Assembly (NCBI GenBank): GCA_964430885.1
Contig: CAYSHM010000010.1
Span: 36,601 to 100,600 of the forward strand
Reading direction: 5' to 3'
DNA: 64,000 nucleotides
DNA from: an uncultured archaeon
GTDB taxonomy: Archaea; Thermoplasmatota; Penumbrarchaeia; JASLWR01
The first letter of the stretch is position 1. Every line of letters starts with the position of its first letter. The translations under genes were made by a program, and so were the position numbers. The notes beneath the pieces are model-generated. The model was not told the DNA's origin and searched no databases. It saw only the letters and a program-made list of their open reading frames with translations. Shown one piece after another: positions 1 through 45,384 of this stretch.

Positions 1-3000
1 GCAACGGTAAGTATGAAAACAATCTCTGGTATAGGAAAAGGTACCATCACCAAAGGTCCAAAAATATCCAGTAATAACTCCATCAGGATCAAAAGATTCC
101 TTGCTACTGAATTTCACAGGTTGGCCTTCATAGCATTCTTCAATTGAACATTTATCCAACCATATTTTTGCGCTAGGTGCCAAATTCTCCACCATGAATT
201 CATCTGATTTTATACCTTCATTCCCTCCTGAATCCACTGCAAAAACCCTGAATCTAAAACGTTCGCTCCTTTTTATGTTATTAAAATCATATTGACATTT
301 ATCTCCCGCAGTAACGGTTAGCACTTCCCACCCCTGCATATTCTGGGAGGTATATTGAAGAATATATATGTCCACTACTCCGCCACCGGCATCTTCGGTA
401 GAATTCCATTTTATAAAATACCCCATTAATTCCCGATTATCCTCGGATAATCTTACCTCTGCTACGAGACTGTTTACCTTATAAGGACGGATGCGGTCAA
501 TAAGTACGGGAATTTCAGCTACGGAATAATATCCTTTGATACCTGTATTTCCATATGGAATAATTGTCAAATAAATCTCGGTGTATTTTTCGGTAATACC
601 TTGGAAGGTGAAAGTTGTAATATTTCCTTCAAGAGTATAATTGAGAATATTTTCTTTGTAGGGTGCATTTCCTATCAGGATCCGGGTCCAATTCAAACCG
701 GATGGAGAGTTTCCGATCATATCCCAATCCCACTTGATGGATTGGGGACCTGTCGCTAAAATGGTAACAGATATCAATTTGCGGTCCGGAACGGGAGATG
801 AGCATCTTATTCGATATGAATCATGGTGGAAGGTATGCGTGCCCAATGAACTATTCCTGCCCAGGTTATCTTGTGCACAGATACCGAATATATGAGATCC
901 GTTTTCAACTCTTGGAACCTGTATCTCCAGAAAACCTCTGTCAATGTCTACAGAAGAAACCTTATAGCATTCAGCGGAACCTTCGTCTACGTTCCACCAG
1001 TATCTTCCAATATTGAACAGGGGATCATTGTTATAGATATCTATCAATTCTATCCTGAAAACAGGGCAGGTTTGGTTGCTCCAGCCCTCTAATAGGTCTT
1101 CCGGCAATGGGGTTGGAATTTCAGGTAGACATGGGTAGAACTGGACCGCATCTTCCTGATAAGGATCCAAAGACTGGTTCCCTGGCAGGGTCAGCCGTGC
1201 ATAAAATCCATATTCATCTTCAGATTGGACCACCTTGAGGAGGATGCGGTTAATTCCCTGTTTAAATGTGACTGGAACGACGAACTCATCTGCCCAAGCA
1301 CAATTTGTTTTTCTTTCCTCCAATAGGATAAGTTCACCGTTCAGCCAAACTTCTATCCCGTCATCCGCACCTATCCTAAGTTCATACTCGCCCTTTTCCC
1401 TGGTAAGTATGTTTGAAAATGCGTAGATGCTGTTATATTTCAAGTTCAGATCTTCCTCAGCAAGGTCGATATAATCACAGGGACTAGTATACTGATACCA
1501 TTCCAAACCATTCTCCACATCCCCGGGTGATGGTGACTCATCCCAGAAATCCCCAGACCCCGAATCATACAAATTACCTGTATCCAATTCAATATATTGA
1601 TTCTCCAAAGCATGCGGGTAATCAAGATTTGAAAAAGGACCTAGGAAAAGCCATTCCTTTTGTGTTCTGGGAACTTCAAGAAATTTAAAATAATCAATTG
1701 ATAATACAGTGGATGGGTCCGGAGAATCCTCAAGGATGAGTTTTAAACCAGTTATATTTAAACACTCTTCAGTATTATTGGCAATCCTGATCCATCCAGG
1801 ATGTTCTTCAAGTCTAATACCAATTTTATGAAATTCGTTATCCGGCGGTACTATGAAGCGGACCTTTTCCTGATCATTTCCAGGATATGTGATGCCTGCT
1901 TTGTTAGTCCATTCGAATAATATCGTTACCGGCTGTGCTCCTGAGTTCTTCAGCCTAGCTTCTATTGAAGTATTTACTGAAGGGTCCAATTGAACTAGAG
2001 GAGATCTAAGATAGGTCCCAGCAGTAAGATCATGGATATCCCACCGGCCATCCATAGGATAATCATTTCTACGGGGAAAAATCTCCCACCCATCCTTCAA
2101 TGTAGGTCTGTCGAAATTCCAGCAATTTTTCATAACCGGTACATCCATGACCTTGAGAGGTGAAAGCAATTTCTCCGAGAAAACGCTGTCTCTTATAGCC
2201 CAGCCATAATTGGGATAGTTTTTAAAGTACCAGTATTTGAAAAGGCAAACCCCCTTGGCCCCCTCCTGTCTAGCAATGGTGATCTGGTCCTTCAACAAAT
2301 CGATTCCCTGCTCTTCTGTGTTTACAGACCCATGAGCAGAATTTTCTGGTGTATAAACATAGGTTCCAACGTAAATGTTCTTACCATTGCAGTGATCCAC
2401 ATGATTGTCTGCACAGCTCCTGAAACTCGATCTACTGGTTGTGTAGGTCATCGGCGTAAGATAGTCCACCAGATTCTCCTCGGTCCATCTTCTGGCATCC
2501 TGATACCAGCTAGAATATCCCCATGAATAACCGCTGGCAACATCGGCACCGATCCAAAGATAGGGCTTATAGTCATTTACCCGTTCGCGGAACATCCTTA
2601 CCATTTTTGTCAGTTCATCAGCCTGCCAATCTCTTCTGGAGCTGTAGCCTGACTCAGCGAAAGCCTGATTGGAATATGAATCATATGAATATGAGCCGGA
2701 CCGATACCGTATATGATCAAGTTTCATACCGTCTATTGGATAAGACGCAATTTCCATGAGAATATCCACAACAAACTCTCTTGCTTCGGGTATAGCAGGG
2801 TTGATCCAGTTGACCGGAGCACCGGAACTTGACACCTGCCTCCATTCAGGGTGGTCCCTGCAAGCAAAATAATTGGGCATTACACTTATCCATGGATGTA
2901 TCTCAATTCCCTTCTTATGCGCTTCGATGCATAATGTCATTAACGGATTAAAATCAGGCTTTACATCCACATGCTTCGGATAAAATTCAGAATTGTAATA

Positions 3001-3408
3001 CACACCTGCCCATTCACCATTGATTATAGGGCTTACGGCATTGAAATTATGCGTGACTGCAAAGTCAACCAAATCTATAATATCGGTGTGATTTACAATT
3101 CGGTAGCCAACGGTCCACAGACTTCTGTATTCGGTCTCTGCATCCTCCTTTCCTTCACGGGTTGAATCGATGATATGTTCTTTCCGGGCTGTACATTTGA
3201 GATGAGCATTTCCAATTCCTTCCGTGTTGCTGGCTCCAAATGACCTAATTTCCGATGTATCAACTTCATGATCATTACTGTCGGATGTAAAATCAGAGAA
3301 CTGAAAAGGATTTAGAAATAGGAACAGGACTAACATCAATAACAATCGGCTCCAAAATCGATACTTTGATCGATCATTGCCACCAATATTCGTACTTGGG
3401 CCCTTCAT
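1..3408 (-). CDS. GHL10/DUF187 glycoside hydrolase-like surface protein, paralog 3 in transcription order; 3'-truncated by the window edge and not in the ORF track
   Basis: Hand translation from ATG at 3408 (MKGPSTNIGG...). The segments checked stay in frame and give EYRSLWTVGY, LCIEAHKKGIEIHPW, YPIDGMKLDHIRY, YQDARRWTEENLVDY and a PKD motif (SFDPDG...YFWTFGDGTFSY) at the window edge. Colinear with the two upstream paralogs. Confidence 0.85.
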   Translation of the reverse strand, partial: MKGPSTNIGGNDRSKYRFWSRLLLMLVLFLFLNPFQFSDFTSDSNDHEVDTSEIRSFGASNTEGIGNAHLKCTARKEHIIDSTREGKEDAETEYRSLWTVGYRIVNHTDIIDLVDFAVTHNFNAVSPIINGEWAGVYYNSEFYPKHVDVKPDFNPLMTLCIEAHKKGIEIHPWISVMPNYFACRDHPEWRQVSSSGAPVNWINPAIPEAREFVVDILMEIASYPIDGMKLDHIRYRSGSYSYDSYSNQAFAESGYSSRRDWQADELTKMVRMFRERVNDYKPYLWIGADVASGYSWGYSSWYQDARRWTEENLVDYLTPMTYTTSRSSFRSCADNHVDHCNGKNIYVGTYVYTPENSAHGSVNTEEQGIDLLKDQITIARQEGAKGVCLFKYWYFKNYPNYGWAIRDSVFSEKLLSPLKVMDVPVMKNCWNFDRPTLKDGWEIFPRRNDYPMDGRWDIHDLTAGTYLRSPLVQLDPSVNTSIEARLKNSGAQPVTILFEWTNKAGITYPGNDQEKVRFIVPPDNEFHKIGIRLEEHPGWIRIANNTEECLNITGLKLILEDSPDPSTVLSIDYFKFLEVPRTQKEWLFLGPFSNLDYPHALENQYIELDTGNLYDSGSGDFWDESPSPGDVENGLEWYQYTSPCDYIDLAEEDLNLKYNSIYAFSNILTREKGEYELRIGADDGIEVWLNGELILLEERKTNCAWADEFVVPVTFKQGINRILLKVVQSEDEYGFYARLTLPGNQSLDPYQEDAVQFYPCLPEIPTPLPEDLLEGWSNQTCPVFRIELIDIYNNDPLFNIGRYWWNVDEGSAECYKVSSVDIDRGFLEIQVPRVENGSHIFGICAQDNLGRNSSLGTHTFHHDSYRIRCSSPVPDRKLISVTILATGPQSIKWDWDMIGNSPSGLNWTRILIGNAPYKENILNYTLEGNITTFTFQGITEKYTEIYLTIIPYGNTGIKGYYSVAEIPVLIDRIRPYKVNSLVAEVRLSEDNRELMGYFIKWNSTEDAGGGVVDIYILQYTSQNMQGWEVLTVTAGDKCQYDFNNIKRSERFRFRVFAVDSGGNEGIKSDEFMVENLAPSAKIWLDKCSIEECYEGQPVKFSSKESFDPDGVITGYFWTFGDGTFSYTRDCFHTYRC

Positions 3409-3480
3409 ATTAATCCTTTTATTTGGTATTTTTTCGGTTGATTCATTCTATTTTTATAGCTAACCACTTATTATTTCGGA

Positions 3481-6400
3481 TCATATCTCGAATTCATTTA
3501 TCAGTAATTTCTCAGTACTCCTAACATCCATTTCCGAGAGGTCTATGTTCTGAGACCTTGTTTCCATCTCCTTTTCACTTGAACTCTTCCTCCTCAGATA
3601 CAACGCGAAATTGAGAAGAAGGAAAAACAAGCATACTATACCAAGAAGAAGAAAAGGGAAATATTTTGAGAGAAAACTGGTGATCAAACCACCTGAATCT
3701 GCGGTTTCATTTTCAGAGTTGTCCGGTCCGGAATCTGTTTCTGGCAAATCTCCGACATCGGAATCATCACCGGATTGTGCAGAGTTATTTGCATTGCTAT
3801 TTGTTTCATTTGCCAATTGCTGGGGTGGGCTGGTGATATTTATAAGATAGGTAGTTACATTATAGGCTCCGAACTCATCAAAAACTGAGAGCGAAACCGT
3901 AAAAATACCCGCCTTCCTGAATGTATGAAAGGTCTTCTCGTCGTAAGAAAAAGTGCCATCGCCATAATTCCAATAATAATCGTACACATACCCGTCAGGA
4001 TCGTAAGAATTCCCCGCATAGAATAATACAGGCATACCCACGAATGTTTCATTTATATCTATCATAGGAGAAGATATTACAGAGGTAGGAGCCAGGTTCT
4101 CAACCAGAATATCCTCGGAAGCGGGTCCTTGATTTCCGCTCACGTCAACAGCAAACACCCTGAACCTGTACCTTTCACTTCTAGAGGGATTACCAAAAGA
4201 AAAAGTCGTCTTATCTCCTTCAGTTGTACCCAGCTGCTTCCAATTCATGATGTTCTGGGATCGGTATTCAACAACAAAGCGGTCCAACTGTTCCTTGGTG
4301 CCAGATGAATACAGTTCGTCCCATGAAATGATGTAACTAATTAAACTATGGCCGTCAGGAGCAATATCTGGTAGATATCTCAATCCCGATACCTTATCCG
4401 GTTTAGAGTTATCGATAATCACAGGTACCTGAGAAGATGTCTTCAATCCCTCCAGGCCTGCATTGCTGGTAGGAATGAGAGATAAATAGATACTATTGTA
4501 ATAATCTGTAAGAATATCATAGGTAAAGGAAAGTGATTCTCCGCTTATATTGATCTTATGGATATTGGAATTTCCGGGTGAACTTCCTAACCAAATCTGA
4601 ACATGTGATATCCCAGAACAACAGGGTGTGACAATATCCCAATTCCAGGTGACTTTTTGCTGGGACTGGGATAGTTCAGTTACTCCTATGAGTTCCCTAT
4701 CAGGAACAGGAATGGAAAATTTCGGCAAGGTTCGATCAACTTTATATGTATGATTGCCCCAGCTGGAGTTTCTGCCGATACCATCCTGAGCTCTGACAGA
4801 ATATGTATGGTATCCGTTGGAAATATTGGTCAGTTCATGTTCCATATATCCTTTCAATATATTCGATTCGTGGACTGCCAATAGCTTTGGGTTTTCATTA
4901 TCTATCTTCCACCAATATTTCCCAACACTGAAAAAAGGGTCTGGATCTTCAGAGATGACGAAATGGAACCTCATTGAATTATTGTCACGGGTGATCCATT
5001 CATCTACAAGGTCGTCTGGCTCCGGTTCAGGCAGAGGAGGTAGAACAGTATAGTAACTGAGCAAATCATCAACACTGCCATTGTTCTCATCCGTCAACCG
5101 AAAATAGAAACCGTATTCTCCTGTTTTCTGAACCAGTTTCAGCATTAATGAATTTATCCCTTCTGAAAGGGAAATCGGAATGGTCAGGTTATCAACCTCG
5201 GCCTGCTGTACCACCTTGTCGTCCCGGATTACTTCCTCACCATTGACCCATAAGACCACACCATCATCCGCACCCACTTTCAGATGATATTCCATATCCA
5301 TTTCAGATATGACATTGGTATAGAAATATGTGGATTCCGCTTCATTACCTAAACCCAGATCATAGAGATCTATGTAATCTCTGGTTGTTGTGAATTCTGC
5401 CCATTCCAAACCGGATTCTATCTGTCCGGGCTCAGGAGGGATGCAGGTGAAATAGGTGTTATTATTATCTGGAGGAAGATCAAATTCACTGAATGGCCGG
5501 CCAACTATAGAAGCACGATCCATTTCCATGGCTGAAAAATAATCCGTGTTCTGAAAGGGTCCCAGCTTTAACCAATCCTTTTGGCAATCCGGATCGGATT
5601 GAAACTTGAAGTAATCAAGAGTAAGTGTAGCTGATGGATCGGCATTATCGATTACTGATATGTTGAATCGGGTGATCCTTGCGGTATTTGGATCACCATT
5701 TCCCTTGATACCCCAGCCAGCTACTTCATCCAAACGATGGCCGTAAGTGTGAAATTGTCCATCAGGTGGAAGCTGGAACTCAACCTTATTCTCATTCTGT
5801 TTGGGGTATTCCCAGCCAACATCATTTTTCCAGGTGAAAGATAATATTAAAGGGTTATTGCCGTCATTCTTTGCCCTTAACTCCAGTGTCGGAGCTGAGT
5901 GAGGATCCATATCCAAAAGAGGTGAGACCAATGTGGTGCCTTCATATGCATTGTGAATCTCCCACTGATCGTTCATGGGATGATCGTATCGTCTTGGAAA
6001 AATATTCCAGCATTCCCTGTAGGTTGTCTGGTTGAATTCCCATTCTGTTCTGTACACTGGCACTGTCAATTTCTTAACAGGGGCCCATGTTCTGTTGGGA
6101 AATACAGAATTCAAAGCCCATGCATATTCGGGATTGTCCCTCAGGAACTCATATCGGAAAAGACAGACCCCATCGGCACCTTCGGTTTGGGCAATATCTA
6201 TCAGATCCACTATTAGAGCAATTCCCTCTTCATCGGTCTCTACTTGACCGTGAGCAGTATTGCCCGCTGTATATACATATGGACCAGCTATGATCTGATC
6301 ACAATACTGAGCCCTTACATAACTTCTCACACTATTTCTGAAGCTGTTCCTGTTAGGGGTATAAATCATGGGTGTCAAGTAATCTATTATGCCTTCCCTC

Positions 6401-7242
6401 GCCCACTGGGAACCTCCCCCATCAATTGAGTACCAGAAATCGGGTTTATATTCATGAACCGCTTCACTGAACATTCTGAGCATCTCCGTAAACTGGTCAC
6501 GCTCCCAAACCTGTTTACTAGCATATCCGGATTGAGCCCAGGCCTGCATCGTATAATCGTCATATGAATCAGGAATGTAAAGATGATCCATTCTCAATCC
6601 GTCTATGGGATAAGTACACATCTCCATATACATATCTACAAGATATTCTCTACAATCAGGTCTATTAGTATTGAACCCCCGGCCTGAGGGAACGCCGTTC
6701 TGATCAACCACCCTGAATTCAGGGTGTTCTATAAAGGCCCAGCGATTCGTATGGGGATGTATCCAAACATGAACCTCTATACCCCGCTTGTGCGCCTCTA
6801 TACACAGGTTCATCAGTGGATCAAAACCAGGGGCTATATCGACATGTAGGGGGTAGAATTCCGATTGATAATACACTCCTCTGCCCTCTCCATTTATAAT
6901 TGGACTGACAACATTGAAATTATAATCCTCGCAGAAGTTCAGGAGCTCAAGGATATTACTGATATTGATTATACTGTAGCCAATGGTCCACATTCCCCTG
7001 TACTCTACAAGCTCACCGCTCTCACCAACCTCCAATCTACTTTCGAGTTCAGAATCCGAAGGAACGACCAACAATCGATTCTCCTGTGATATCCCAGTTT
7101 CCTCCGATATTGGGTTATACGTTTTGTCCAACGGGATAGGCGTAAATAGGAATAATATTGCAATGTACATAATGAACAAACGAAGTCCAGTTTTCCTGAT
7201 CTTCTTATCCCTTTTCATTCTATCACTTGGTTTACTTTGCAT
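3481..7242 (-). CDS. GHL10/DUF187 glycoside hydrolase-like protein with PA14-like beta-sandwich, FN3, PKD and C-terminal TM anchor (paralog 2)
   Basis: N-terminal hydrophobic signal; EYRGMW, DPL..LCIEAHKRGIEVHVW, YPIDGLRMD, IDYLTPMIY; WLKLGPF...GADDGVVLWVNG; YRFRVFAVDVSGN (FN3); SYDPDG..YYWNYGDG (PKD); TM FPFLLLGIVCLFFLLLNFALYL followed by RRK. Confidence 0.85.
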   Translation of the reverse strand: MQSKPSDRMKRDKKIRKTGLRLFIMYIAILFLFTPIPLDKTYNPISEETGISQENRLLVVPSDSELESRLEVGESGELVEYRGMWTIGYSIINISNILELLNFCEDYNFNVVSPIINGEGRGVYYQSEFYPLHVDIAPGFDPLMNLCIEAHKRGIEVHVWIHPHTNRWAFIEHPEFRVVDQNGVPSGRGFNTNRPDCREYLVDMYMEMCTYPIDGLRMDHLYIPDSYDDYTMQAWAQSGYASKQVWERDQFTEMLRMFSEAVHEYKPDFWYSIDGGGSQWAREGIIDYLTPMIYTPNRNSFRNSVRSYVRAQYCDQIIAGPYVYTAGNTAHGQVETDEEGIALIVDLIDIAQTEGADGVCLFRYEFLRDNPEYAWALNSVFPNRTWAPVKKLTVPVYRTEWEFNQTTYRECWNIFPRRYDHPMNDQWEIHNAYEGTTLVSPLLDMDPHSAPTLELRAKNDGNNPLILSFTWKNDVGWEYPKQNENKVEFQLPPDGQFHTYGHRLDEVAGWGIKGNGDPNTARITRFNISVIDNADPSATLTLDYFKFQSDPDCQKDWLKLGPFQNTDYFSAMEMDRASIVGRPFSEFDLPPDNNNTYFTCIPPEPGQIESGLEWAEFTTTRDYIDLYDLGLGNEAESTYFYTNVISEMDMEYHLKVGADDGVVLWVNGEEVIRDDKVVQQAEVDNLTIPISLSEGINSLMLKLVQKTGEYGFYFRLTDENNGSVDDLLSYYTVLPPLPEPEPDDLVDEWITRDNNSMRFHFVISEDPDPFFSVGKYWWKIDNENPKLLAVHESNILKGYMEHELTNISNGYHTYSVRAQDGIGRNSSWGNHTYKVDRTLPKFSIPVPDRELIGVTELSQSQQKVTWNWDIVTPCCSGISHVQIWLGSSPGNSNIHKINISGESLSFTYDILTDYYNSIYLSLIPTSNAGLEGLKTSSQVPVIIDNSKPDKVSGLRYLPDIAPDGHSLISYIISWDELYSSGTKEQLDRFVVEYRSQNIMNWKQLGTTEGDKTTFSFGNPSRSERYRFRVFAVDVSGNQGPASEDILVENLAPTSVISSPMIDINETFVGMPVLFYAGNSYDPDGYVYDYYWNYGDGTFSYDEKTFHTFRKAGIFTVSLSVFDEFGAYNVTTYLINITSPPQQLANETNSNANNSAQSGDDSDVGDLPETDSGPDNSENETADSGGLITSFLSKYFPFLLLGIVCLFFLLLNFALYLRRKSSSEKEMETRSQNIDLSEMDVRSTEKLLINEFEI

Positions 7243-7322
7243 AGGGCTGGATTCTTTCCATATCGACTGTTCGAGCAGTTCTAACGATATCTCTTCCAGT
7301 AAATTGATACTAACCGGGTCTG

Positions 7323-10300
7323 CTAATCATCAATTCGATCATATTCAACATCATCATTACCAATTTCCTTAGGGGATTTCCCGAATTGTGAGCGTTTAAA
7401 AAGCAATGAAACTGAGAACAACAGCAGAAACACAGCTATACATGCAATAAGTATGTAAAGTACTGGCGATTCGGTAATCGGTTCTTCTTTTTCCTTCTCA
7501 ACATCTGTATTATTACCGTCTGTAGCATCTGAATTATTCAATTCTGTACCGTCATCATCAACATCTGTTGCGTTCAAAACCTCCCTTTCGGGTGATATTG
7601 TAATATTTATGAAATTTTTTGTGATATTGTAGGCACCGAAATCATCATAGACTGTAAGCATTATCTCGTATAATCCTTCCTCTCGGTAAGTATGAAATAC
7701 CGATCCTTCATAGGAAAAGGTTCCATCTCCGAAGGACCAAAAATGTTCATGAACAATCCCATCAGGATCATAGGAGATATTTGCCGTGAACAGCAGCGGA
7801 TATCCCGAATATGTTCCGTTCTGCTGATTTGCAGAGTATTGGATAATTGCAGTAGGCTCAAGGTTCGGGATGGTATAATCCTCTGAAACCGGGCCGTAAT
7901 TTCCCGCGGTATCAACTGCATAGATACGGAATCGATAGCGTTCGCTGCGCTGTATCTTATCGAATTGATAGCTGGTTTTGGAAACTTCTACCTCGGCCAG
8001 GATTTTCCATTCTACAAGGTTTTGACTTGTATATTCCAGCACATACCGATCTAGATCCCCAAAGGCACCAGGATCCTCAACTGGGTCCCAGGATATTGAA
8101 TATGATTCCATGCTCCTTCCATTTTGAGACACATTTGGAGTGATTTCAAGTGAACCTACTCTCTCGGGTCTCAATCTATCTATCACAACAGGATTGCTGG
8201 TCTGGGGATCTCCTGAAATATTGGTATAGCTCACTGGAACCACAGTGAAATAAATGCTCTTGTGAGAGGTTGAGATTCCATCGAATGTATATTCTTCCAC
8301 AACTCCTTCCAGTGAATCAGTATAGATATTGGATGATCCAGTAGTGTCGCCGATAAAGATCTCAGTACGTGTTATTCTGGAAGGACAGTCTTTTATCAAG
8401 GACCAGAACCAGGTAACAGGCTGTTCGGAATTCTGAAGATCGGATATGCCAATGAGGTCCTTATCAGACACTGGTTTTGAGTAAGCGGGAATGTCATTAT
8501 CCACCTTGAAGATATGTTCTCCCCATGTGCTGTTCCGTCCCAATGCGTCCTGAGCTAGAATGTAGAAAGTATGCTCTCCGCTATCCACCTGGTTCACCTC
8601 AATTGATAAAATTTCATCATTGATGATCTGGTCATTCACATATACTTCAACAGGTGAATCAGAATCTATTTTCCACCAGTAACTTGTCACATCGAAATGC
8701 GGGTCCGGGTCGGAGGTCTCTATATGGTCCATAGTAAATGAAAGTGCTGTAAGGTTAAGCCAACCGTCGGATTGATCATCTGGAACAGGAGCAGGAATGT
8801 CCGGAAGTACAGGATAGAACTTAAGTTCATCACTAACCGAATTGTTCATGTAATCGGTCATTCGAAGATAAAAACCGAAAGCGCTGGTATTCTGACTCAA
8901 CTTAAGCACCAACTGGTTCAACCCTTCTCTAACATTGATGGAAACAATGTAATTATCTACCTGAGCTTTTAGGACCGACCCATTATCATGAGATACCATC
9001 TCCCCATTGAACCACATCATATGGGCATCATCCCCACCTAGCCTTATTTGATAATCACCCTCTTGACCGGAGAGAATATGAGAAAAGACGTACATTGTAT
9101 TGAAATCATCATTCCAACCCTTATCAATAAAACTAACATAATCAGTTGTGGTAGAGTACTTTTTCCATTCTTTTCCGCTTGTGATCTGACCTTCTTCCGG
9201 CATTATATCTATCGGACCGCCAAACGACCAGTTACCCTCAGTCGAACTATCATGAGGAATATGAAGATTTCCGACGGCAACCTGGTAATCAACGTTTTGG
9301 AAAGGACCCAATAGGAGCCACTCTTTTTGGCATCGGGGAACATTTAGAAACCTAAGATAATCAAGGTGAATTTGAGGGTTCGTCTCATTTGCATCAACCA
9401 CCTTTAAAAATGTTCGTGATATCCTGAGATTTCTATCCAGATTCTCATCGAAAATCACCCATGATGAACGGTTATCGAGTCTGGACCCCATGGTGTGGTA
9501 TTCACCATCAGGCGGAATCGTAAAATAGATCGGATCTTCATCATCCTTGGGATAATAGATATTTTTCTCGTTGGACCATGAAAATTCAAGTTTTAAAGGC
9601 CGACTTCCCGAATTTTTCACCCTAAATTCAATCGATGAGTGATTCACAGGGTCCAAGTTCAACAGAGGGGAGACCAGTTCGGTTCCGGATACCGCATTTG
9701 TAACCTTCCATTCTCCATTCAGAGGATAATCATATCTTCTGGGAAACAACTCCCACCCTTCTCTGAGGGAAGGGTCGTTGAATTCCCATCCACTCTTATT
9801 GACTGGAACTGTTTGTTCCTTGAGGGGCGTCCAAACCTTTTGAGAATAGGGGCCATCCTTGAGATGCCATCCATAGCTCGGATGTTCCTCCAGATATTTG
9901 TAGCTAAACATACTGATGCCGTCAGCATTATTATTCCGTGCTATTTCTATCTGATCCAAAAGAAGATTGATCCCTTCTTCCTCGGTCTCTACACTTCCGT
10001 GGGCTGAATTTCCAGGAACATAAACATATGGTCCAGCATTTAGGAGATTTCCATGCTTATTCTGAACGTAATCTCTAAGGGAAGACTCGAATGAACTCCT
10101 ACTGGTGGTATATCCCATTATCTGTAAATAATCCACCCATCCCTCCTCTGTCCAAAACCGGTTATCCTGATAAACACCGTGATACCAGCTGGAATAACTC
10201 TGCCAAACATCCGCACCAAGCCAAAGATAGGGTTTATATTCGTTGAGCGCTGCCCTGACCATTTTAACAAGTTCACTCACTTGATCCCTCTGCCATTGAG

Positions 10301-11024
10301 CTCTATCAGTGTAACCTGAATCTGCAAAGGCCTGATTTGAATAGGGATCGTATGAATAGCTTCCGCTTCCGTACCTTATAGTATCCATCTTAATTCCATC
10401 AACAGGATAGGAGGCGATTTCCATAACCATATTTACCAGATGTTCCCTGACATCCGGTCTTGACGGCGTTATCCAAACTGTACTGGGCGATCCTCCGCTC
10501 GATACCTGGGGCCAATCCTGATGCTGAATTCTGGCTAAAACATTGTAGCACATATGGACCCATGGATGCACCTCGATCCCACGTTTATGAGCTTCTATGC
10601 AGAGATCTTCCAAAGGATTGAAATTCCAGGCTACATCAATATGTTTTGGATATATATATGAATAATAGAAAACACCGTCACTATCTCCATTAATGAGAGG
10701 GCTTAATACGTTTATATTGTGAGAATCCGCAAATTCTACCAAGGCCAAAACCTCACTGTGGTTGACTATCTTGTATCCATCGCACCACATGCCTCGGTAT
10801 TCAATGTCGTTATCATCCCTGGATATGTAAATACTACCTTTATCGGTATGAATGATATTATCTTCTATGACTGTTTCTTTTTCCGATATCGAAATTTCTT
10901 CTTCACAAACCGAATATTCATTGATGATATCGTTATAGAAAATTGAGAGCATCATCCCCAGGATAAGTATGAATAATGCAAAGAAGCAGGCAGTTTTCTG
11001 TTTGATTTTCCCAGGTACCTTCAA
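7323..11024 (-). CDS. GHL10/DUF187 glycoside hydrolase-like protein with PA14-like, FN3, PKD and C-terminal TM anchor (paralog 1)
   Basis: TTG start with AGGTG RBS; EYRGMW, LCIEAHKRGIEVHPW, WITPSRPDVREHL, YPVDGIKMDTIRY, YQDNRFW..GWVDY; same downstream domain order as 3481..7242; TM VLYILIACIAVFLLLFSVSLLF followed by KR. Confidence 0.85.
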   Translation of the reverse strand: MKVPGKIKQKTACFFALFILILGMMLSIFYNDIINEYSVCEEEISISEKETVIEDNIIHTDKGSIYISRDDNDIEYRGMWCDGYKIVNHSEVLALVEFADSHNINVLSPLINGDSDGVFYYSYIYPKHIDVAWNFNPLEDLCIEAHKRGIEVHPWVHMCYNVLARIQHQDWPQVSSGGSPSTVWITPSRPDVREHLVNMVMEIASYPVDGIKMDTIRYGSGSYSYDPYSNQAFADSGYTDRAQWQRDQVSELVKMVRAALNEYKPYLWLGADVWQSYSSWYHGVYQDNRFWTEEGWVDYLQIMGYTTSRSSFESSLRDYVQNKHGNLLNAGPYVYVPGNSAHGSVETEEEGINLLLDQIEIARNNNADGISMFSYKYLEEHPSYGWHLKDGPYSQKVWTPLKEQTVPVNKSGWEFNDPSLREGWELFPRRYDYPLNGEWKVTNAVSGTELVSPLLNLDPVNHSSIEFRVKNSGSRPLKLEFSWSNEKNIYYPKDDEDPIYFTIPPDGEYHTMGSRLDNRSSWVIFDENLDRNLRISRTFLKVVDANETNPQIHLDYLRFLNVPRCQKEWLLLGPFQNVDYQVAVGNLHIPHDSSTEGNWSFGGPIDIMPEEGQITSGKEWKKYSTTTDYVSFIDKGWNDDFNTMYVFSHILSGQEGDYQIRLGGDDAHMMWFNGEMVSHDNGSVLKAQVDNYIVSINVREGLNQLVLKLSQNTSAFGFYLRMTDYMNNSVSDELKFYPVLPDIPAPVPDDQSDGWLNLTALSFTMDHIETSDPDPHFDVTSYWWKIDSDSPVEVYVNDQIINDEILSIEVNQVDSGEHTFYILAQDALGRNSTWGEHIFKVDNDIPAYSKPVSDKDLIGISDLQNSEQPVTWFWSLIKDCPSRITRTEIFIGDTTGSSNIYTDSLEGVVEEYTFDGISTSHKSIYFTVVPVSYTNISGDPQTSNPVVIDRLRPERVGSLEITPNVSQNGRSMESYSISWDPVEDPGAFGDLDRYVLEYTSQNLVEWKILAEVEVSKTSYQFDKIQRSERYRFRIYAVDTAGNYGPVSEDYTIPNLEPTAIIQYSANQQNGTYSGYPLLFTANISYDPDGIVHEHFWSFGDGTFSYEGSVFHTYREEGLYEIMLTVYDDFGAYNITKNFINITISPEREVLNATDVDDDGTELNNSDATDGNNTDVEKEKEEPITESPVLYILIACIAVFLLLFSVSLLFKRSQFGKSPKEIGNDDVEYDRIDD

Positions 11025-11060
11025 TTAAACACCTTTATGATTTTCTTTGTTTCAATTGTA

Positions 11061-14039
11061 TTACAATTCTTGTGAACCGTCCTCATCATCCTTACCTTTG
11101 GCTTTCGATTTATCAGAAGGAGAACCGTTCTTGGATTTTACGGTTTTATTTACAGAAGGACTGCTAGATCCCACATCCATGTCTTCCTCCACACGCATCC
11201 CTTTAACGCTGATCGACAGATCATATATTACTATCCCGATAACGAGCAGAACAAAGACTATCCACAATAATTTTGACTTGTTCTTGCTTAGAATGCTTCT
11301 TGAAGAATAGGTCTTCCGATCGTCAAGACCGTCCAGATCTTCATCCTCAGTTTCATTCACTACTGTCTTGTTTTCAGAGGGTTCAAATATCAATATAGGC
11401 ACCTGAATGGATTCCTCATTTCCAGCAAGATCTCTGATCCTCAGTACTGCAAAATAAATTCCGGGATACTGATAGATATAATAAAATGAACTGTTCTTGA
11501 TAATAACACCGTCTCCCATCTCGCATTCCAGATTTGACAAGCCGTAATTATCGGTACAGTTGGTAAAATTGAAAAAAAGAGAATTGTTCACACGTGAAAT
11601 GAAGTAGGGCAGCAAAGAACGGTTGTCCTCCTCGCTCGGTGTGCGATATGTAAAATTCCTTAGTCGTGTAATGTTGAAATCATCCTCAAAGGAGACCAAC
11701 TCACCCAAAGAATAACAAATCTGGGTACGATTGCCGTCTGAATAGGATATTCTATATTCATGATAATTGGTAAGATTTTTATCGTCCAATATGGAAAGAT
11801 TCATAACGGCAATAGGTAATATTACATCAGTCACCTCCAAATGAAAAGTGGTGGTGTTCCAGTTTTCCATTGCATCCAGTATCTGCAGGGTAATGTAGTA
11901 AGTTCCTGGTTGATCATACCTGTAGTTCAGGATTGAACGGTTGCTACCGAAAATGATACTACCATCTCCCAAGGACCAGTTGTAGAAGGTTATATTTTCA
12001 TTATCATAGGAAGCTGTAGCATTGAGGAAAGCATACCCCCCAAGCTGTACTTTTTCCGGATAATCCACAATAACCACCGGAGGGGTCCCGTCCTTCACGA
12101 AAACAGCACCAGTATCCACATTATAATTTCCCTCTGAATCATATACTGCGAGATCTACAAAGTAGGTCCCCATCTTATTATATATGTGGTTCACCCACGA
12201 GACTGTGGTAATCTCAAATGTCCCATCACCGAAATTCCATTCATATCTTGAAATCAACCCGTTATCTGTAGATCCAGAAGCATCCAGGGTTAAGATATAT
12301 CCCTTACGAATATGATTCTCAGAAGGAATATCTGCTCTAGGGGGAGTCAGATCGTGAACCCAAACCCTCTTTGTGGTATAGGTGGTAAAACCTGTTTTGT
12401 TGATTATTGTCAAGCGGACAGTATAGTTTCCCGGGTCTTCATAGATGTGAGTGACAGCGGATCCAGCGTGATAATCCACATTTCCATCTCCGAAATCCCA
12501 GGTATAGGTTATGATCCCGTCACGGTCATAAGTTTCACTGGCATCGAACTGTATCGGGCTGTCCTCATTTACTTCGTCCATAGAATCTATCACAGGGCAG
12601 GGTACAACCTTTACTTGAGTATGATGCCTATCGATACATCCGTCATTGTCCTCAGCAGTAAGGGTCACCTGATATATTCCCTGTTTCTCATATGCATGTT
12701 CTGCATAAAGCTTGTTGGATTCGTTACCATCACCGAAATCCCAACGAATATTCTTAATAGTACCATCTACATCATAGGCAATTGCATCATTGAACCTGAT
12801 GGGTTTCCCAGGTTCGGCAAAAACACTTTTGCCAATATTGACGGATGGAGGAAGGTTGGTAGCGTTGCTCGCAATATATTTCCTCAGATGGGTATTTATC
12901 TTTCCGTCATGATGTCCCATGTACCAGAAACAGAGACCGTATAAGTTGAACTTCTTCACGAGATATAATTTATAAAGAAAACTCTGATTATCTGAATAAT
13001 GGGTTTCTCTGTATCGGTTGGATCCGTAATCAGCATTATAGGTATAGAAAGGATAACGCCCAGTTGCATTCCATTGTCTTTTAACACCGTAAACTTCCCG
13101 GACGTTCTCTGCCTGTTCATAGTTATAGATCTGGGCACCGGAGAGAGTATTCCCAACCTCATCTACCGGCCAGTCATATCCGAAAGTAGGTATTCCAAGG
13201 ATTACCTTTTCCCGGGGGATCTTGGTAACTGCATATTCCATTATGCTGTGGACCCAATCGTATGAGGCCACAGCTCCTGCAGAATGATGGGTGGACCAAT
13301 GCTCATTGTAGGCCATAATCTTCACTTGATCGGCCACAACCCCAATTGGCTCGTATATATAAGCGTCACATTGAAAACCTGTTCGGTCGTCAGTCCATCT
13401 CGGATACAGAGAAACCGATATTGTCTTGTTGATCTTCTTCATCTCTACACTGAGGTTCTCAATAAATGATACATACCTGTATCTATCAGAGTATCTCACA
13501 GACTCGTAGTTGATCTCTATTCCGTCATAACCGGTGTTGTTTACTATTTTACATATCCGTTCGATATGTTTGGCCCGAAGATCAAGATCATTGAAGAAAA
13601 GGGTATAGGTGGCATTATTACCACAATATATGATAGGGATCACGGTATAGTTCAGTTCCCTGTAAGTGTTCAGCCTGTTCCATATAAAACCCGGTTCATC
13701 AACGGTCTGTACCACCTTGGCAAAGCTGTCAAGGGTGTACCAGTAAGGATAGATATGATTGAAAACATCCCTGTTCTGGGTCATATTAAGGTGGCATTCC
13801 TCATCCCAATAAACTGTCCAGGAGCCATAATGCGCTGAATTATTTACACTTCCGTTCCTAGTAGAAATCTCAAGGAACTCCTTGAAGGAAGAATAATCAA
13901 AGGCATCATTTTCCAGACCTTCATCGACCGAAGGTTCTTCACCCAAATAGTTGGTAATAAGGGAACTCAGGGGTATAAAACCCAAAATCGCAATAATAAT
14001 TAATGAACTGAGAGTGATTATATATTCTTTGAATTTCAT
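11061..14039 (-). CDS. GH18 glycoside hydrolase (YaaH/SleL/chitinase-like) with 4-5 PKD domains and C-terminal TM anchor
   Basis: GYDGIEINYE, IMAYNEHW, IPREKVILGIPTFGYDWP and GLCFW are GH18 barrel motifs; repeated WDFGDG PKD motifs; hydrophobic segments at both ends; GGTGAA RBS. Confidence 0.88.
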   Translation of the reverse strand: MKFKEYIITLSSLIIIAILGFIPLSSLITNYLGEEPSVDEGLENDAFDYSSFKEFLEISTRNGSVNNSAHYGSWTVYWDEECHLNMTQNRDVFNHIYPYWYTLDSFAKVVQTVDEPGFIWNRLNTYRELNYTVIPIIYCGNNATYTLFFNDLDLRAKHIERICKIVNNTGYDGIEINYESVRYSDRYRYVSFIENLSVEMKKINKTISVSLYPRWTDDRTGFQCDAYIYEPIGVVADQVKIMAYNEHWSTHHSAGAVASYDWVHSIMEYAVTKIPREKVILGIPTFGYDWPVDEVGNTLSGAQIYNYEQAENVREVYGVKRQWNATGRYPFYTYNADYGSNRYRETHYSDNQSFLYKLYLVKKFNLYGLCFWYMGHHDGKINTHLRKYIASNATNLPPSVNIGKSVFAEPGKPIRFNDAIAYDVDGTIKNIRWDFGDGNESNKLYAEHAYEKQGIYQVTLTAEDNDGCIDRHHTQVKVVPCPVIDSMDEVNEDSPIQFDASETYDRDGIITYTWDFGDGNVDYHAGSAVTHIYEDPGNYTVRLTIINKTGFTTYTTKRVWVHDLTPPRADIPSENHIRKGYILTLDASGSTDNGLISRYEWNFGDGTFEITTVSWVNHIYNKMGTYFVDLAVYDSEGNYNVDTGAVFVKDGTPPVVIVDYPEKVQLGGYAFLNATASYDNENITFYNWSLGDGSIIFGSNRSILNYRYDQPGTYYITLQILDAMENWNTTTFHLEVTDVILPIAVMNLSILDDKNLTNYHEYRISYSDGNRTQICYSLGELVSFEDDFNITRLRNFTYRTPSEEDNRSLLPYFISRVNNSLFFNFTNCTDNYGLSNLECEMGDGVIIKNSSFYYIYQYPGIYFAVLRIRDLAGNEESIQVPILIFEPSENKTVVNETEDEDLDGLDDRKTYSSRSILSKNKSKLLWIVFVLLVIGIVIYDLSISVKGMRVEEDMDVGSSSPSVNKTVKSKNGSPSDKSKAKGKDDEDGSQEL

Positions 14040-14114
14040 ATGTATTCACCGAAAATTGATGTTGAGCTATTCTGTTTCTTTGCTGTGTGTTATTTTACTT
14101 CTGTATAGGAATTT

Positions 14115-14138
14115 GGAATAATATCTTGAGATTATTCC
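14115..14138. promoter_or_regulatory. Inverted repeat GGAATAAT-N8-ATTATTCC upstream of the glycosidase operon (possible operator or 5'UTR hairpin)
   Basis: Perfect 8-bp arms, lying between a minus-strand TATA-like element (~14192-14200) and the ATG at 14039. Confidence 0.35.
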
Positions 14139-14486
14139 CAACCATCATATTTATCGAGCGACAATATGCTTATACATTCAGTATTCCGTTCATAATAAAA
14201 AGTTTTGTATTCTTTTATTTGGATTGATTATTTGGCAATTCCTATAATCAACATATTTAAGGTTTAATAAAATCGAAAAGAAAAGAAATTTTCCATTGAA
14301 AACTCATGTGAACAAAAATAATAATTTCAGGTAATGAATTGAAAACAACCTCATGATAAGAAATTGAATCGAATTAATATATAGAAAAATTTCCGTAGCT
14401 TACAGCCCTTCTTCGGCAACAGAAAAGAAACCAATAATTCCACATAACATTCAATATCAATTATAGTTCCATATAAATAAATAAGC

Positions 14487-15437
14487 TCAGAGGGTCACCG
14501 TAGTTCCATCTTGTGCAGATCTTATACACGCCTTGACTATCTCAAGGGCTTTCAATGCTTCTTCACCTGTGACAAGGGGTGATTCCGCTTTCTCTATAGC
14601 ATTAAAGAAATCCAATATCTCCTTTTTGAGCGGCTCTTCTCTATGAGGGGTATGGGTTTCCATTTCGTATTCGGCGGTTTCGGGATTGAAAGTGAAAACG
14701 GACAGCTTACCTTTCAGGAGGTCAGCTTCCAGATAACCGGCATCACCTGTTATATACAGGCTCCTTCTTGGGTGTGGACGGTTCCAGCTAACATGAATAT
14801 TTGCGATTGCCTCGTCATGGAATGATAATAATATATGTGCGAGATCCTCATGTGTCGGATGCTTGTTCCTATTGGCCATTGAAGATACTCTTTTTACTTT
14901 TTTATTAATGATATACCTTGCTAGATCCACATCATGTATCGAGGTGTCCATGATCACCCCTACATCCGAGATCCGTTTGGGATAAGGCCCCACCCTTACA
15001 GCCTCATAGGATATTATATTGCCTATCTTGCGCTTATCAACAGCAGACTTCACACTCTCAACCATAGTGTTAAAGCGCTCTATATGGCCAACTGCAAGGA
15101 TCACATCATGTTCCTTGGCGGTGTCCACAAGCTCTTGTCCTTTGGATATTTCATCGCATATGGGTTTCTCAATCAGAATGTGAATTCCCTGCTCCATTGC
15201 CCTTTTGGATATTTCAAAATGGGTCGTGGTAGGAGTAGCTATTGATATAGCCTCAACTCCACTGTTTATAATAAATTCCTCAAAATCCGAATAATAGCTG
15301 CAGCCGTATTTTTCAGCCATGCTTCTAGCAGTCTCTTCATGCAGATCAAAAACCGCTTTCAGACAACCAAGATCCTTGTAGTTACGGGCGTGAAATCCAC
15401 CCATTCTACCAACACCTGCAACACCTGCCTTTATCAT
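14487..15437 (-). CDS. Gfo/Idh/MocA family NAD-dependent oxidoreductase (UDP-sugar 3-dehydrogenase-like)
   Basis: GVAGVGRMG Rossmann motif, ATPTTTH, HILIEKP, VGHIERFN, GVIMDTSIHDVDL. Start trimmed to MIKAG at 15437. Confidence 0.88.
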   Translation of the reverse strand: MIKAGVAGVGRMGGFHARNYKDLGCLKAVFDLHEETARSMAEKYGCSYYSDFEEFIINSGVEAISIATPTTTHFEISKRAMEQGIHILIEKPICDEISKGQELVDTAKEHDVILAVGHIERFNTMVESVKSAVDKRKIGNIISYEAVRVGPYPKRISDVGVIMDTSIHDVDLARYIINKKVKRVSSMANRNKHPTHEDLAHILLSFHDEAIANIHVSWNRPHPRRSLYITGDAGYLEADLLKGKLSVFTFNPETAEYEMETHTPHREEPLKKEILDFFNAIEKAESPLVTGEEALKALEIVKACIRSAQDGTTVTL

Positions 15438-15680
15438 AATATCACAGTTAAATACCTGCACCAATAATTTAAGGTTTTGCCACCATAAACGCCAAAGGAA
15501 ATAATCCTTACAAACTATTGTCATTCTGGTCAAATCAACTGTGCCTAGAGGTGTATACAAATATTTTCCCATGAGCATATTACAAGATGAAGTTTTAATA
15601 ATTAAAAGAGAAATCAGGAAACAGAACCGATTCATGGTCAAAAATTATTTTCTTTCCCAATTTATAATTGCGGTGAAGCA

Positions 15681-17575: not shown

Positions 17576-18259
17576 ATGTACAAGGTTAACGAGATATTCT
17601 TATCCATTCAGGGTGAGGGAATTCTCCAGGGAATTCCCACGGTATTCATTCGTTTTTCAGGATGCAATCTCAATTGTGATTGGTGCGATACGGAATATGC
17701 CAGGGAAGAGGGAGAGGAGAAATCTCTTGGCCTTATAATCTCCGAAATTCAGAAATTCAGTGCAAATAATGTCTGCATAACTGGAGGTGAACCATTACTC
17801 CAGAAGGATCTCGCGGAATTGATCCGCTCACTCCTGGAGAATGGATACAAAGTGTGTATTGAAACCAACGGCAGTCTGCCAATCAAGGGATTATTGGAAA
17901 AAATTTCAGTGAGAGATGGTTCATCAGGGAAAAAAGAAATATTATTTTCCGTTGATGTCAAAACCCCTTCATCGGGTGAAGTAGATTCCTTTGAGTATAA
18001 CAATCTTGAAGTAATGAGTGATGGCGACCAGTTGAAATTCATTGTAAAAGACCTATCAGACCTTATTTACGTTAGGGATTTCCTGATTAACCGAGGAAAA
18101 GTGTTCACGGGTAATATTTTTATCCAACCCGTTGACAATAAAAATCTGGAAGAATTGGCGGAAAAATTCATTCAAACTGAATGGCCCCAGGAGATGGATA
18201 TTCGTTTCGGTTTACAGATCCACAAGATAATCTGGTCACCGGATACCCGCGGCGTGTGA
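17576..18259 (+). CDS. queE: 7-carboxy-7-deazaguanine synthase (radical SAM)
   Basis: VNEIFLSIQGEG, FIRFSGCNLNCDWCDT (CxxxCxxC), ITGGEPLLQ, IETNG, DVKTPSSG, LQIHKIIW..RGV. Confidence 0.9.
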   Translation: MYKVNEIFLSIQGEGILQGIPTVFIRFSGCNLNCDWCDTEYAREEGEEKSLGLIISEIQKFSANNVCITGGEPLLQKDLAELIRSLLENGYKVCIETNGSLPIKGLLEKISVRDGSSGKKEILFSVDVKTPSSGEVDSFEYNNLEVMSDGDQLKFIVKDLSDLIYVRDFLINRGKVFTGNIFIQPVDNKNLEELAEKFIQTEWPQEMDIRFGLQIHKIIWSPDTRGV

Positions 18260-18321
18260 CACATAGACTACTGGGATTATATTTTGAATATCAAATCAAT
18301 GAAAAGCTTAAAATAACACTG

Positions 18322-18349
18322 CTTATAATTAACGAACCGACCAGTCGGT
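18322..18349 (+). promoter_or_regulatory. TATA box (TTATAA) followed by the palindromic TetR-type operator ACCGAC-CA-GTCGGT
   Basis: Palindrome at 18336..18349 just downstream of TTATAA at 18323..18328 and about 20 nt upstream of the TetR start codon. Confidence 0.6.
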
Positions 18350-18369
18350 CTTTGGATTGGGTGACGGTT

Positions 18370-18942
18370 ATGGGTCAATTCGGTGAGACAAAGAAAAAGG
18401 TACTGGAAGCCGCTTTTAATATTTTCAGTGAAAGAGGATATAATCGAACTCCTATCAGTGCAATAGTCAAGGAATCGGGGGTATCTAAAGGGGGAATATT
18501 CCATCATTTTGAAAGCAAATACCATTTAGCAAGGGATTGTCTGTTCTGGTGGGCAGAGAATCATATTTCAACGCGAATATCTAATATCGAACGGGGTAAA
18601 TTGAAGCCAGATGATATTCTCATTCATTTCATAGATTCAATGCTTGAAATGTTTGATGGTTCAAAGGGATTCACTAAATTTTTCTGGGAGGTTTTCGAGG
18701 AAGCGCTGACTAATAAAGAGGATAATTCCATATGGCTTGAATTTCTTGATGGGTATGTAAAGGAAATTGAACAGATTTATGAATCCATGGGTGTTAAGGA
18801 CCCAAAAATGAAATCGGTTTGTTTTCTTTCAAATTTAGACGGTCTTGCGCTATACTATTCCATGCTAAACGAATCACCTTTAAAGATGGACCAGCAGAGA
18901 ATAAGAAATGAACTTATCAGAACCTGGGTCAATATTTCCTAG
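18370..18942 (+). CDS. TetR/AcrR family transcriptional regulator
   Basis: TKKKVLEAAFNIFSERGY...IVKESGVSKGGIFHHFESK HTH; GGGTGA RBS before ATG 18370. Confidence 0.92.
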   Translation: MGQFGETKKKVLEAAFNIFSERGYNRTPISAIVKESGVSKGGIFHHFESKYHLARDCLFWWAENHISTRISNIERGKLKPDDILIHFIDSMLEMFDGSKGFTKFFWEVFEEALTNKEDNSIWLEFLDGYVKEIEQIYESMGVKDPKMKSVCFLSNLDGLALYYSMLNESPLKMDQQRIRNELIRTWVNIS

Positions 18943-18968
18943 GTATACCATATCACAGAGGGACATCT

Positions 18969-29187: not shown

Positions 29188-29188
29188 T

Positions 29189-37267: not shown

Positions 37268-37300
37268 AGGGATTTCCTGAGAAATGGATGGTGTGAATTT

Positions 37301-38359: not shown

Positions 38360-38552
38360 TGTATATCTAACGGTAATTGGAATACTCAATTGAATTTATC
38401 AATTATCGAAACCGTTTCTGGATGGAATTAAACTTAAACAATACCCAAAATATTTATGTAACTTGATTCAGATTAAGTTGAGCACTTTGAACCATGAAAA
38501 AAACTGAATTTTATACCATTTATTAAGCTAGGATTTTGTAAAGGCGATAATA

Positions 38553-42047: not shown

Positions 42048-42066
42048 CTACAGTTAGTAGAATTGA

Positions 42067-42117: not shown

Positions 42118-42143
42118 GATTTTTTAATCATTAATATTATTTC

Positions 42144-45364: not shown

Positions 45365-45384
45365 ACGAGAGGTATTGATCTGAT

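Follow-up and report, generated by a model that had tools for sequence, protein, structure and literature searches.

A conserved archaeal gene module that joins surface-anchored GH18 and GHL10 glycosidases to a putative GlcNAc-type polysaccharide synthase

The left end of a 64,000-nucleotide (nt) stretch of DNA from an uncultured marine archaeon of the phylum Thermoplasmatota (assembly GCA_964430885.1, contig CAYSHM010000010.1; G000:C10:36601-100600 in our numbering; the whole stretch is hereafter called the window) carries one GH18 and three GHL10 glycosidase genes (GHL10 paralogs A, B and C) which, as we report here, belong to a conserved module with a membrane glycosyltransferase of family GT2 and a protein encoded directly after it, referred to as the partner. 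Our preferred reading, to which we assign a probability of about 60%, is that this module specifies an archaeal synthase-dependent surface polysaccharide system of the N-acetylglucosamine (GlcNAc) type with tethered processing enzymes. The order and coupling of the genes, their co-occurrence across genomes and the domain families, motifs and folds of their products are direct observations.

Open reading frame (ORF) calling, followed by Pfam profile and hydropathy scans of the window's proteins, recovered four large co-directional minus-strand ORFs separated by 36, 80 and 72 nt. An earlier interpretation made from this DNA alone (the sequence-only reading) had described a string of at least 14 kb holding four co-directional glycosidase genes with gaps of 36–80 nt. 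The genes and gaps are real, but the string is longer, since it runs for a further ~13 kb on the same strand beyond the left window edge, through genes for the GT2, the partner, a CE4 deacetylase, an acetyltransferase and an aminotransferase (locus L006). The complete gene of GHL10-C (G000:C10:36130-40008, 1292 amino acids, aa) ends outside the window, and its TAA stop codon overlaps the ATG of the GT2 gene (TAATG). Thus the leftward extension of the contig, which had been proposed in search of more paralogs or of sugar transporters, yielded a GT2 synthase and amino-sugar genes and no sugar transporter. At the other end, 447 nt of AT-rich sequence lie between the GH18 gene and the Gfo/Idh/MocA gene upstream of it, and this spacer is the likely start of the transcription unit. 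Scans for promoters (42 sites for 44.6 expected) and terminators (5 sites for 12.1 expected) relied on bacterial consensus models and are uninformative for an archaeon.

The GT2 gene lies downstream of GHL10-C on the minus strand and encodes a 514-aa protein with at least four transmembrane (TM) segments according to hydropathy. It displays the D, DxD, ED and QxxRW motifs of the membrane glycosyltransferases of synthase-dependent systems, and DDGS, DGD, ED and QRxRW are invariant in the eight orthologs aligned. Its top NCBIfam matches, PgaC_IcaA (144 bits, for a cut-off of 422) and NodC (105 bits), are both below the equivalog cut-offs; Pfam gives a weak match to Chitin_synth_2 (29 bits), and a profile built from the GT2 orthologs matches hyaluronan synthase 1 with 72 bits over the catalytic and TM parts, and the cellulose synthase BcsA with 27 bits. 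An AF2 model of moderate quality (pLDDT 66, pTM 0.69) was compared with known structures using Foldseek: hyaluronan synthases occupy ranks 1–12 and are followed by chitin synthases and then by BcsA, at TM-scores of 0.39–0.48, which are so low that they support the synthase class and not a particular product. Taken together, sequence and model classify the GT2 as a predicted processive, membrane-embedded synthase of the PgaC/NodC/hyaluronan/chitin-synthase type. Pfam recognized no PilZ or GGDEF-type domain, as in a cyclic di-GMP (c-di-GMP) control module, in either the GT2 or the partner.

To assess conservation, the loci of 11 related genomes, drawn from three families (f1, f2 and f3) of one class, were compared by tblastn and ORF calling. 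All of them show GHL10, in one or two copies, followed by GT2, and then by a protein of ~480–900 aa. A GH18 ortholog sits directly upstream of GHL10 in ten of the loci, the exception being genome G053, whose contig ends ~1.4 kb upstream of GHL10, within an open frame. In the nine loci from f2 and f3, every junction is an overlap of 4–37 nt, as computed from the starts of the longest ORFs. At one locus (G008; L035:10466-16804), GH18 and GHL10 form a single frame of 2112 aa in which a TM/basic loop/TM hairpin is kept at the joint; this frame is either a real fusion or the result of a stop codon lost in the metagenome-assembled genome. Gene order and overlaps place hydrolases in one predicted operon with the synthase, their specificity for its product being putative.

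The distribution of the two components across genomes points the same way. The long form of GHL10 was found in 16 of the 401 genomes sampled in the phylum, all 16 within the same three families of one class, and GT2 orthologs (E<1e-200) were found in 15, that is, in the same set minus G154, a 630-contig assembly in which the GHL10 match is a fragment on a 2.4-kb contig. Long-form GHL10 is otherwise rare: among 5.8 billion clusters, 20 proteins of the full-length type were retrieved at E<=1e-130, and the four that carry a name are all assigned to Thermoplasmatota or Thermoplasmata. Since the operon with the GT2 synthase is both conserved and tight, the glycosidases most likely trim or remodel a polymer made by the cell itself; in other words, genomic context predicts activity on self glycans. 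More distant GT2 relatives occur in G146 and G249 and bear long N-terminal extensions; the G146 gene (L131:9801-12275, GT2 E 2.5e-155) has no GH18 or GHL10 nearby. The G146 extension, 470 residues long, matches no Pfam family. The idea that it might be a fused partner was discarded, as the two show no similarity (probability 3%).

The partner, whose gene directly follows that of GT2, is a protein of 652 aa with eight predicted TM segments and no Pfam family in the copy of the window's genome. All eight orthologs that were aligned have a Cys4 ribbon, which is invariant, and a TM block, after which comes a helical stretch that matches TPR; at the three other loci, an ORF of similar size occupies the partner position. 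The TPR part is probably cytoplasmic, as judged from the even number of TM segments and the basic tail. A profile of the Zn-ribbon/TM part retrieved 23 matches at E<=1e-10 among 1.84 billion representatives, two of which are merely Zn-ribbon repeat proteins, and a word-based search with the partner found three near-identical matches; an atlas look-up of the partner returned TPR clusters alone, with scores <0.9, and serves as a lead only. Hence, in place of the TPR scaffold and outer-membrane porin of bacterial synthase-dependent systems, the archaeal module has a TPR protein with a Zn ribbon and eight TM segments, and a porin is not to be expected in archaea with a single membrane.

In the window's genome, the partner gene is followed by that of a 1172-aa, TM-anchored CE4 protein with TFDD and HTLTH motifs, the sole CE4 of the genome, and beyond it, on the same strand, by genes for a hexapeptide acetyltransferase, a DegT-type aminotransferase and an MMPL transporter. 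On the opposite side of the module, the Gfo/Idh/MocA gene has archaeal UDP-GlcNAc 3-dehydrogenase as its top NCBIfam match (270 bits, for an equivalog cut-off of 450) and an ortholog at the corresponding position in G142; it is a candidate for the first step of a 2,3-diacetamido-sugar branch. In a route of the WbpB/E/D type, a dehydrogenase, an aminotransferase and an acetyltransferase would yield a UDP-2,3-diacetamido sugar. Neither CE4 nor the amino-sugar genes are part of the core module, because they are present at only two of 12 loci (the window's genome and G142). Two MMPL/HAE3-type RND transporters flank the cluster (window 18181-21443, plus strand, and L006:5532-8714, minus strand), the one in the window being preceded by a TetR regulator.

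The GH18 protein, the only one of its genome, scores 64.2 bits against Glyco_hydro_18 (PF00704; cut-off 29.6) and contains four PKD stretches besides. From the N-terminus, it consists of a hydrophobic segment, a barrel (approximately residues 67–388, nt 12876-13841), the four PKD stretches, a β-rich stalk and a TM segment (residues 927–945). The closest solved structures are 4wiw (E 1e-23) and YaaH (4s3k, E 5e-22), with YdhD (3cz8) and a cortical-lytic enzyme (4s3j) also among the matches, which span E values of 1e-23 to 6e-19 over the barrel and are not classical chitinases. In the catalytic motif, DGIEINYE (nt 13503-13526), the acid Glu is present and the preceding Asp is replaced by Asn. 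This departure from the canonical GH18 signature DxxDxDxE holds for all 11 archaeal orthologs, which share the pattern x-G-x-(D/E)-I-N-Y-E and a second motif, MAYN, where chitinases have (M)xYD; by contrast, D-x-E is kept in all seven GT2-linked GH18 homologs from Firmicutes described below. In GH18 enzymes, the Asp located two residues before the acid Glu assists the acetamido group of the substrate; family-18 chitinase mutants in which it is changed to Asn show lower hydrolysis and favoured transglycosylation, and GH85 enzymes have an Asn at the corresponding position. The archaeal GH18 clade may thus comprise slow hydrolases or transglycosylases, to judge from these motifs.

All three GHL10 proteins exceed the Pfam cut-off of GHL10 (PF02638, 27.9 bits), with 81.5 bits for A, 40.4 for B and 92.0 for C, and in each the GHL10 domain is followed by a weak PA14 match and then by fn3 and PKD domains. 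They are full-length paralogs (A/C, 43% identity over 1130 aa; A/B, 41% over 1187 aa; B/C, 40% over 1157 aa), in agreement with the sequence-only reading, whose assignment of the four genes to GH18 and to GHL10/DUF187, the family of DigH and Cwp19, is likewise upheld by Pfam, by matches to solved structures and by Foldseek. In the GH18 protein and in each of A, B and C, hydropathy reveals a single hydrophobic segment near the N-terminus and a single TM segment near the C-terminus, the anchor of C becoming visible once its gene was completed from the genome outside the window; the surface display through a C-terminal anchor that had been suggested for the complete proteins therefore extends to the fourth. 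GHL10-A comprises a TIM barrel (~70–395) with the family motif DGIKMDTIRY (nt 10371-10400), a β-sandwich (~420–560), a PA14-like region, fn3 (970–1048) and PKD (1062–1137) domains and a TM segment (1191–1209). GHL10-B has the same type of architecture (TM residues 1198–1216) and lacks ~19 residues between strands 5 and 6 of the barrel, a deletion that is common to its G142 ortholog.

A structure-based classification, one of the checks put forward with the sequence-only reading, was performed on GHL10-A. The AF2 model, which covers residues 60–700 (pLDDT 80, ~90 in the barrel), consists of a (β/α)8 barrel followed by a β-sandwich, and its barrel superposes on Cwp19 (5oq2), the first Foldseek match (E 2.5e-19, TMt 0.75, 22% identity); a GH156 sialidase comes next (E 4e-15), and the C-terminal domain of PgaB is matched with a TMt of 0.70. 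An alignment of eight archaeal and YddW-type sequences contains 13 invariant columns, including D155, the Asp of DGxxxD..RY. The position of Cwp19 D196 is occupied by Thr or His in the archaeal proteins and is variable in other aligned GHL10 members too, and for that reason we did not retain this substitution as a sign of inactivation. In a tree of barrel regions, the three copies of the window's genome and their f1 orthologs form one clade (support 0.99), and the duplication separating A from B/C predates the split between the genus of this genome and that of G142; the ancestral module therefore contained one GHL10. The genome has four GHL10 genes, three of which are in the string. The fourth paralog (G000:C9:85167-88520; L007:7168-10521, plus strand; 1117 aa, 110 bits) is ~25% identical to A–C and of matching architecture, and its neighbours encode a 2145-aa CARDB protein and a NosD/β-helix/LamG protein of >1800 aa, with no synthase nearby.

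At the septum of Escherichia coli, denuded glycans are broken down by DigH (PMC12288456), and Cwp19 is described as a lytic transglycosylase with a role in autolysis (PMC6016235); the structure paper on Cwp19 (PMC5765458) places the cwp19 gene within the locus for synthesis of the PSII surface polymer and names PgaB as the closest structural neighbour of Cwp19. Of the three characterized GHL10 members, two (DigH and Cwp19) thus have as their target an envelope polymer of the producing cell itself, and the third, DogH, reportedly releases maltose from starch (PMC9967864), which leaves the substrate range of GHL10 open.

The association between GH18 and GT2 is also found outside archaea. A scan with the GT2 profile, in which each species was represented by a single genome, kept 80 loci, seven of which, all from Firmicutes (L056, L059, L060, L061, L062, L067 and L070), have a GH18 related to the archaeal one ~2.5 kb downstream of GT2. 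In two of them (L059:6938-14138 and L061:6435-14149), Pfam identified, in this order, CE4, in some cases a UDP-sugar dehydrogenase, a chitin-synthase-like PilZ-GT2 protein, a ~600-aa protein of no identified family and a small GH18. A full-text literature search turned up no paper on this CE4/PilZ-GT2/GH18 operon of Firmicutes. Furthermore, a search with the GH18 barrel retrieved a metagenomic protein of 1154 aa (P0142) that unites GH18 (101–404), CE4 (487–589) and GT2 (773–1018) in one chain and whose GT2 part shares 30% identity with that of the archaeon over 386 residues. From the Firmicutes operons and the P0142 fusion, we conclude that the GH18/CE4/GT2 triad recurs in unrelated organisms. 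The Firmicutes operons (Clostridium sp., Brevibacillus) resemble the archaeal module in their GT2 (27–33% identity), in the downstream position of GH18 (seven of seven) and in the upstream CE4 (two of two scanned), and differ from it by the PilZ domain, the absence of GHL10, the small GH18 of the D-x-E type and another middle gene.

How such a system would work can be outlined as follows. GT2 would polymerize UDP-GlcNAc at the cytoplasmic face of the membrane and pass the chain through its own channel, and in family f1 it may also take a 2,3-diacetamido sugar supplied by the flanking dehydrogenase, aminotransferase and acetyltransferase; the Zn-ribbon/8-TM/TPR protein would be its partner or regulator. 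On the exterior, the polymer would be cut, trimmed, released or re-joined by GH18 and by one to three GHL10 proteins, each displayed on an extended PKD/fn3 stalk that a C-terminal TM helix anchors in the membrane. The tethered CE4 would partly de-N-acetylate the polymer in f1, where the deacetylase, the diacetamido-sugar branch and the extra GHL10 copies would be additions to the core module. In this outline, we infer what the polymer is, that the enzymes act on it and that GT2 and the partner interact physically. Equivalent processing of their respective polymers is carried out by BcsZ, PgaB-C, PelA and fungal chitinases.

By analogy, the module would work like the Pga/Ica systems and like fungal chitin-wall metabolism, while being a member of neither. 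It shares with PgaABCD/IcaADBC (i) a membrane GT2 with QxxRW, for which PgaC_IcaA is the best family; (ii) a CE4, in f1; (iii) a TPR accessory protein; and (iv) a TIM-barrel hydrolase of the fold class of the PgaB C-terminal domain (PMC5765458). Unlike them, it has neither an outer-membrane porin nor a c-di-GMP module, its hydrolases are separate giant TM-anchored proteins to which a GH18 is added, its TPR region, which probably lies in the cytoplasm, is linked to a Zn ribbon and eight TM helices, and its GT2 is far from being an equivalog. The fungal chitin/chitosan wall relies on a GT2 chitin synthase, a GH18 chitinase and a CE4 chitin deacetylase. The same three CAZy families are brought together in the archaeon, where the GT2 model matches chitin synthases after hyaluronan synthases, but here the genes constitute one predicted operon, the GH18 belongs to the YaaH type and has Asn where the assisting Asp would be, and GHL10 is added; no chitin-binding module was recognized in the proteins of the archaeal module.

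At the level of single enzymes, the archaeal GHL10 proteins resemble DigH and Cwp19 by their Pfam scores, by the Cwp19 fold and by the conservation of the family-invariant residues. However, they are three times longer and carry a β-sandwich/PA14-like/fn3/PKD stalk and a TM anchor, and these archaea are not known to make murein. Similarly, 4wiw and the Bacillus spore proteins YaaH (a germination protein), YdhD and cortical-lytic enzyme provide the best sequence matches to the GH18 barrel, whereas the archaeal protein lacks LysM and any spore context and has N-x-E, four PKD stretches and a membrane anchor.

Several observations weigh against the preferred reading. The hydrolytic competence of GH18 is uncertain because the assisting Asp is missing throughout the clade. 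Any assignment of the sugar and of its linkage (β-1,6 or β-1,4) would be tentative, since the GT2 scores fall well short of the equivalog cut-offs for PgaC and NodC, and the genes for CE4 and for the diacetamido-sugar branch have the restricted occurrence given above. The predicted cytoplasmic location of the TPR region is unlike that of the periplasmic TPR scaffolds of bacterial systems. The catalytic domains are carried at the far end of stalks of 600–800 residues, a layout that fits an attack on external particles as well; foraging enzymes typically expand as tandem paralogs; chitinases often contain PKD and PA14-like modules; and the organism is marine, an environment in which chitin is abundant. 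Finally, its genome encodes an Amidase_3 surface protein (G000:C5:34075-37932; L136:7076-10933, minus strand; 1285 aa) with an N-terminal amidase domain (86.9 bits) and a BNR domain, so that some attack on peptidoglycan may exist in f1. This gene adjoins those of an RHS-repeat protein of 1965 aa and of an M6 peptidase (immune inhibitor A).

The last five of these observations, the RHS neighbour included, are also what favours surface foraging or antagonism directed at external chitin, peptidoglycan or necromass, with a synthase that would be unrelated or self-protective, all the more as the nearest characterized relatives cleave glycans of GlcNAc and N-acetylmuramic acid (PMC12288456 and PMC5765458). 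The sequence-only reading had gone in this direction by proposing digestion of bacterial walls, necromass or chitin, possibly for predation. Its enzyme families were correct, but the function finds no support in the synthase operon conserved at 11 of 11 loci, with overlaps in f2 and f3, in the joint occurrence of synthase and long-form GHL10 in 15 genomes or in the altered GH18 motif. Nor do the loci look like polysaccharide-utilization loci: among the ORFs scanned around the window's own locus and at those of G008, G094 and G059, there is no sugar transporter and no amino-sugar catabolic gene, and there is none among the 11 flanking ORFs of G190, in which housekeeping genes, an M48 peptidase and a urocanase adjoin the module. 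The window's genome, which is 91.6% complete, was found to contain no GH20 and no Amidase_2; single genes of the Glucosamine_iso family (which might encode a 6-phosphogluconolactonase) and of the PIG-L type are too ambiguous and were not used. The amidase, in turn, does not covary with the module: Amidase_3, the one N-acetylmuramoyl-L-alanine amidase family recovered, occurs in 14 of the 401 genomes, among them four of four from f1, including G077, which has no module, and none of the 26 genomes sampled from f2 and f3, families in which the module occurs. The module is therefore independent of the amidase, unlike a peptidoglycan route of the DigH kind, and we regard foraging as unlikely.

Two further explanations keep the idea of a self glycan. 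In a variant of the preferred reading, GH18, and perhaps some GHL10 proteins, would be non-hydrolytic and act as transglycosylases, cross-linkers or lectin-like holders, for which fungal Crh/Gas enzymes and the engineered Asp-to-Asn chitinases are models. The N-Y-E and MAYN motifs of the archaeal clade, set against the D-x-E of the GT2-linked Firmicutes enzymes, point to such a role; yet the catalytic Glu and Tyr are kept, making slow hydrolysis equally possible, and the GHL10 proteins retain all family-invariant residues. We therefore hold this variant to be rather improbable. It is more improbable still that the enzymes process another self glycan, such as protein N- or O-glycans or an S-layer, and that the shared operon reflects the co-regulation of envelope genes alone. 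All the proteins are located in the envelope according to hydropathy, and the GH18 family does include endo-β-N-acetylglucosaminidases, but the closest solved GH18 structures are of the YaaH/YdhD type and not of the EndoH type, this type of GH18 is linked to GT2 synthases both in the P0142 fusion and in the Firmicutes operons, and the overlapping junctions argue for one pathway. As for the nature of the polymer in the preferred synthase-dependent system, a chitin/chitosan-like or poly-N-acetylglucosamine (PNAG)-like layer, possibly a true wall for whose growth and division GH18 and GHL10 would serve as autolysins or transglycosylases, is a tentative suggestion, slightly ahead of foraging in our estimation. 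If true, this wall would be to archaea what the chitin wall is to fungi, and its processing would parallel that of bacterial septal glycans by DigH.

Little is known about the surroundings of uncultured marine Thermoplasmatota cells. To our knowledge, no synthase-dependent polysaccharide system of an archaeon has been characterized together with its processing enzymes, and our literature search found no description of this GH18-GHL10-GT2-partner module. That archaea carry PgaC- and cellulose-synthase-like genes is mentioned in a review (PMC10086821). Should our preferred reading be correct, the module would supply a compact and testable parts list, four genes long, for an amino-sugar polymer of archaea; it would place the barely studied GHL10 family in a second setting, beside peptidoglycan processing, and offer a GH18 clade that naturally has Asn at the assisting position. 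The module also calls for caution in the annotation of metagenomes, in which GH18 and GHL10 genes should not be taken as markers of chitin or necromass degradation unless their neighbours have been checked.

Table 1. Features at the left end of the window (positions counted from the first letter of the window)
Feature	Position	Strand	Basis and remarks
GHL10 paralog C, window part = first 1136 of 1292 aa	1..3408	-	Pfam, hydropathy
GHL10 paralog B, 1253 aa	3481..7242	-	Pfam, hydropathy, paralog alignment
GHL10 paralog A, 1233 aa	7323..11024	-	Pfam, hydropathy, AF2 model
GH18 surface protein, 992 aa	11061..14039	-	Pfam, hydropathy
AT-rich spacer, 447 nt, 5' of GH18 gene	14040..14486	-	
Gfo/Idh/MocA oxidoreductase	14487..15641	-	NCBIfam; locus occurrence only in family f1

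Elsewhere in the window, tRNA and Rfam scans, which covered its whole length, gave no matches. A three-gene molybdenum hydroxylase operon (window 27698-31594, plus strand) encodes FAD-binding, 2Fe-2S and MoCo subunits of the CO-dehydrogenase/xanthine-dehydrogenase type. Further large surface-type proteins are encoded in window 35363-48435, namely a Big_5/PKD protein of 634 aa, a Laminin_G_3 protein of 1164 aa and, on the minus strand, a PKD protein of 924 aa; a radical-SAM gene lies between the Big_5/PKD and Laminin_G_3 genes.

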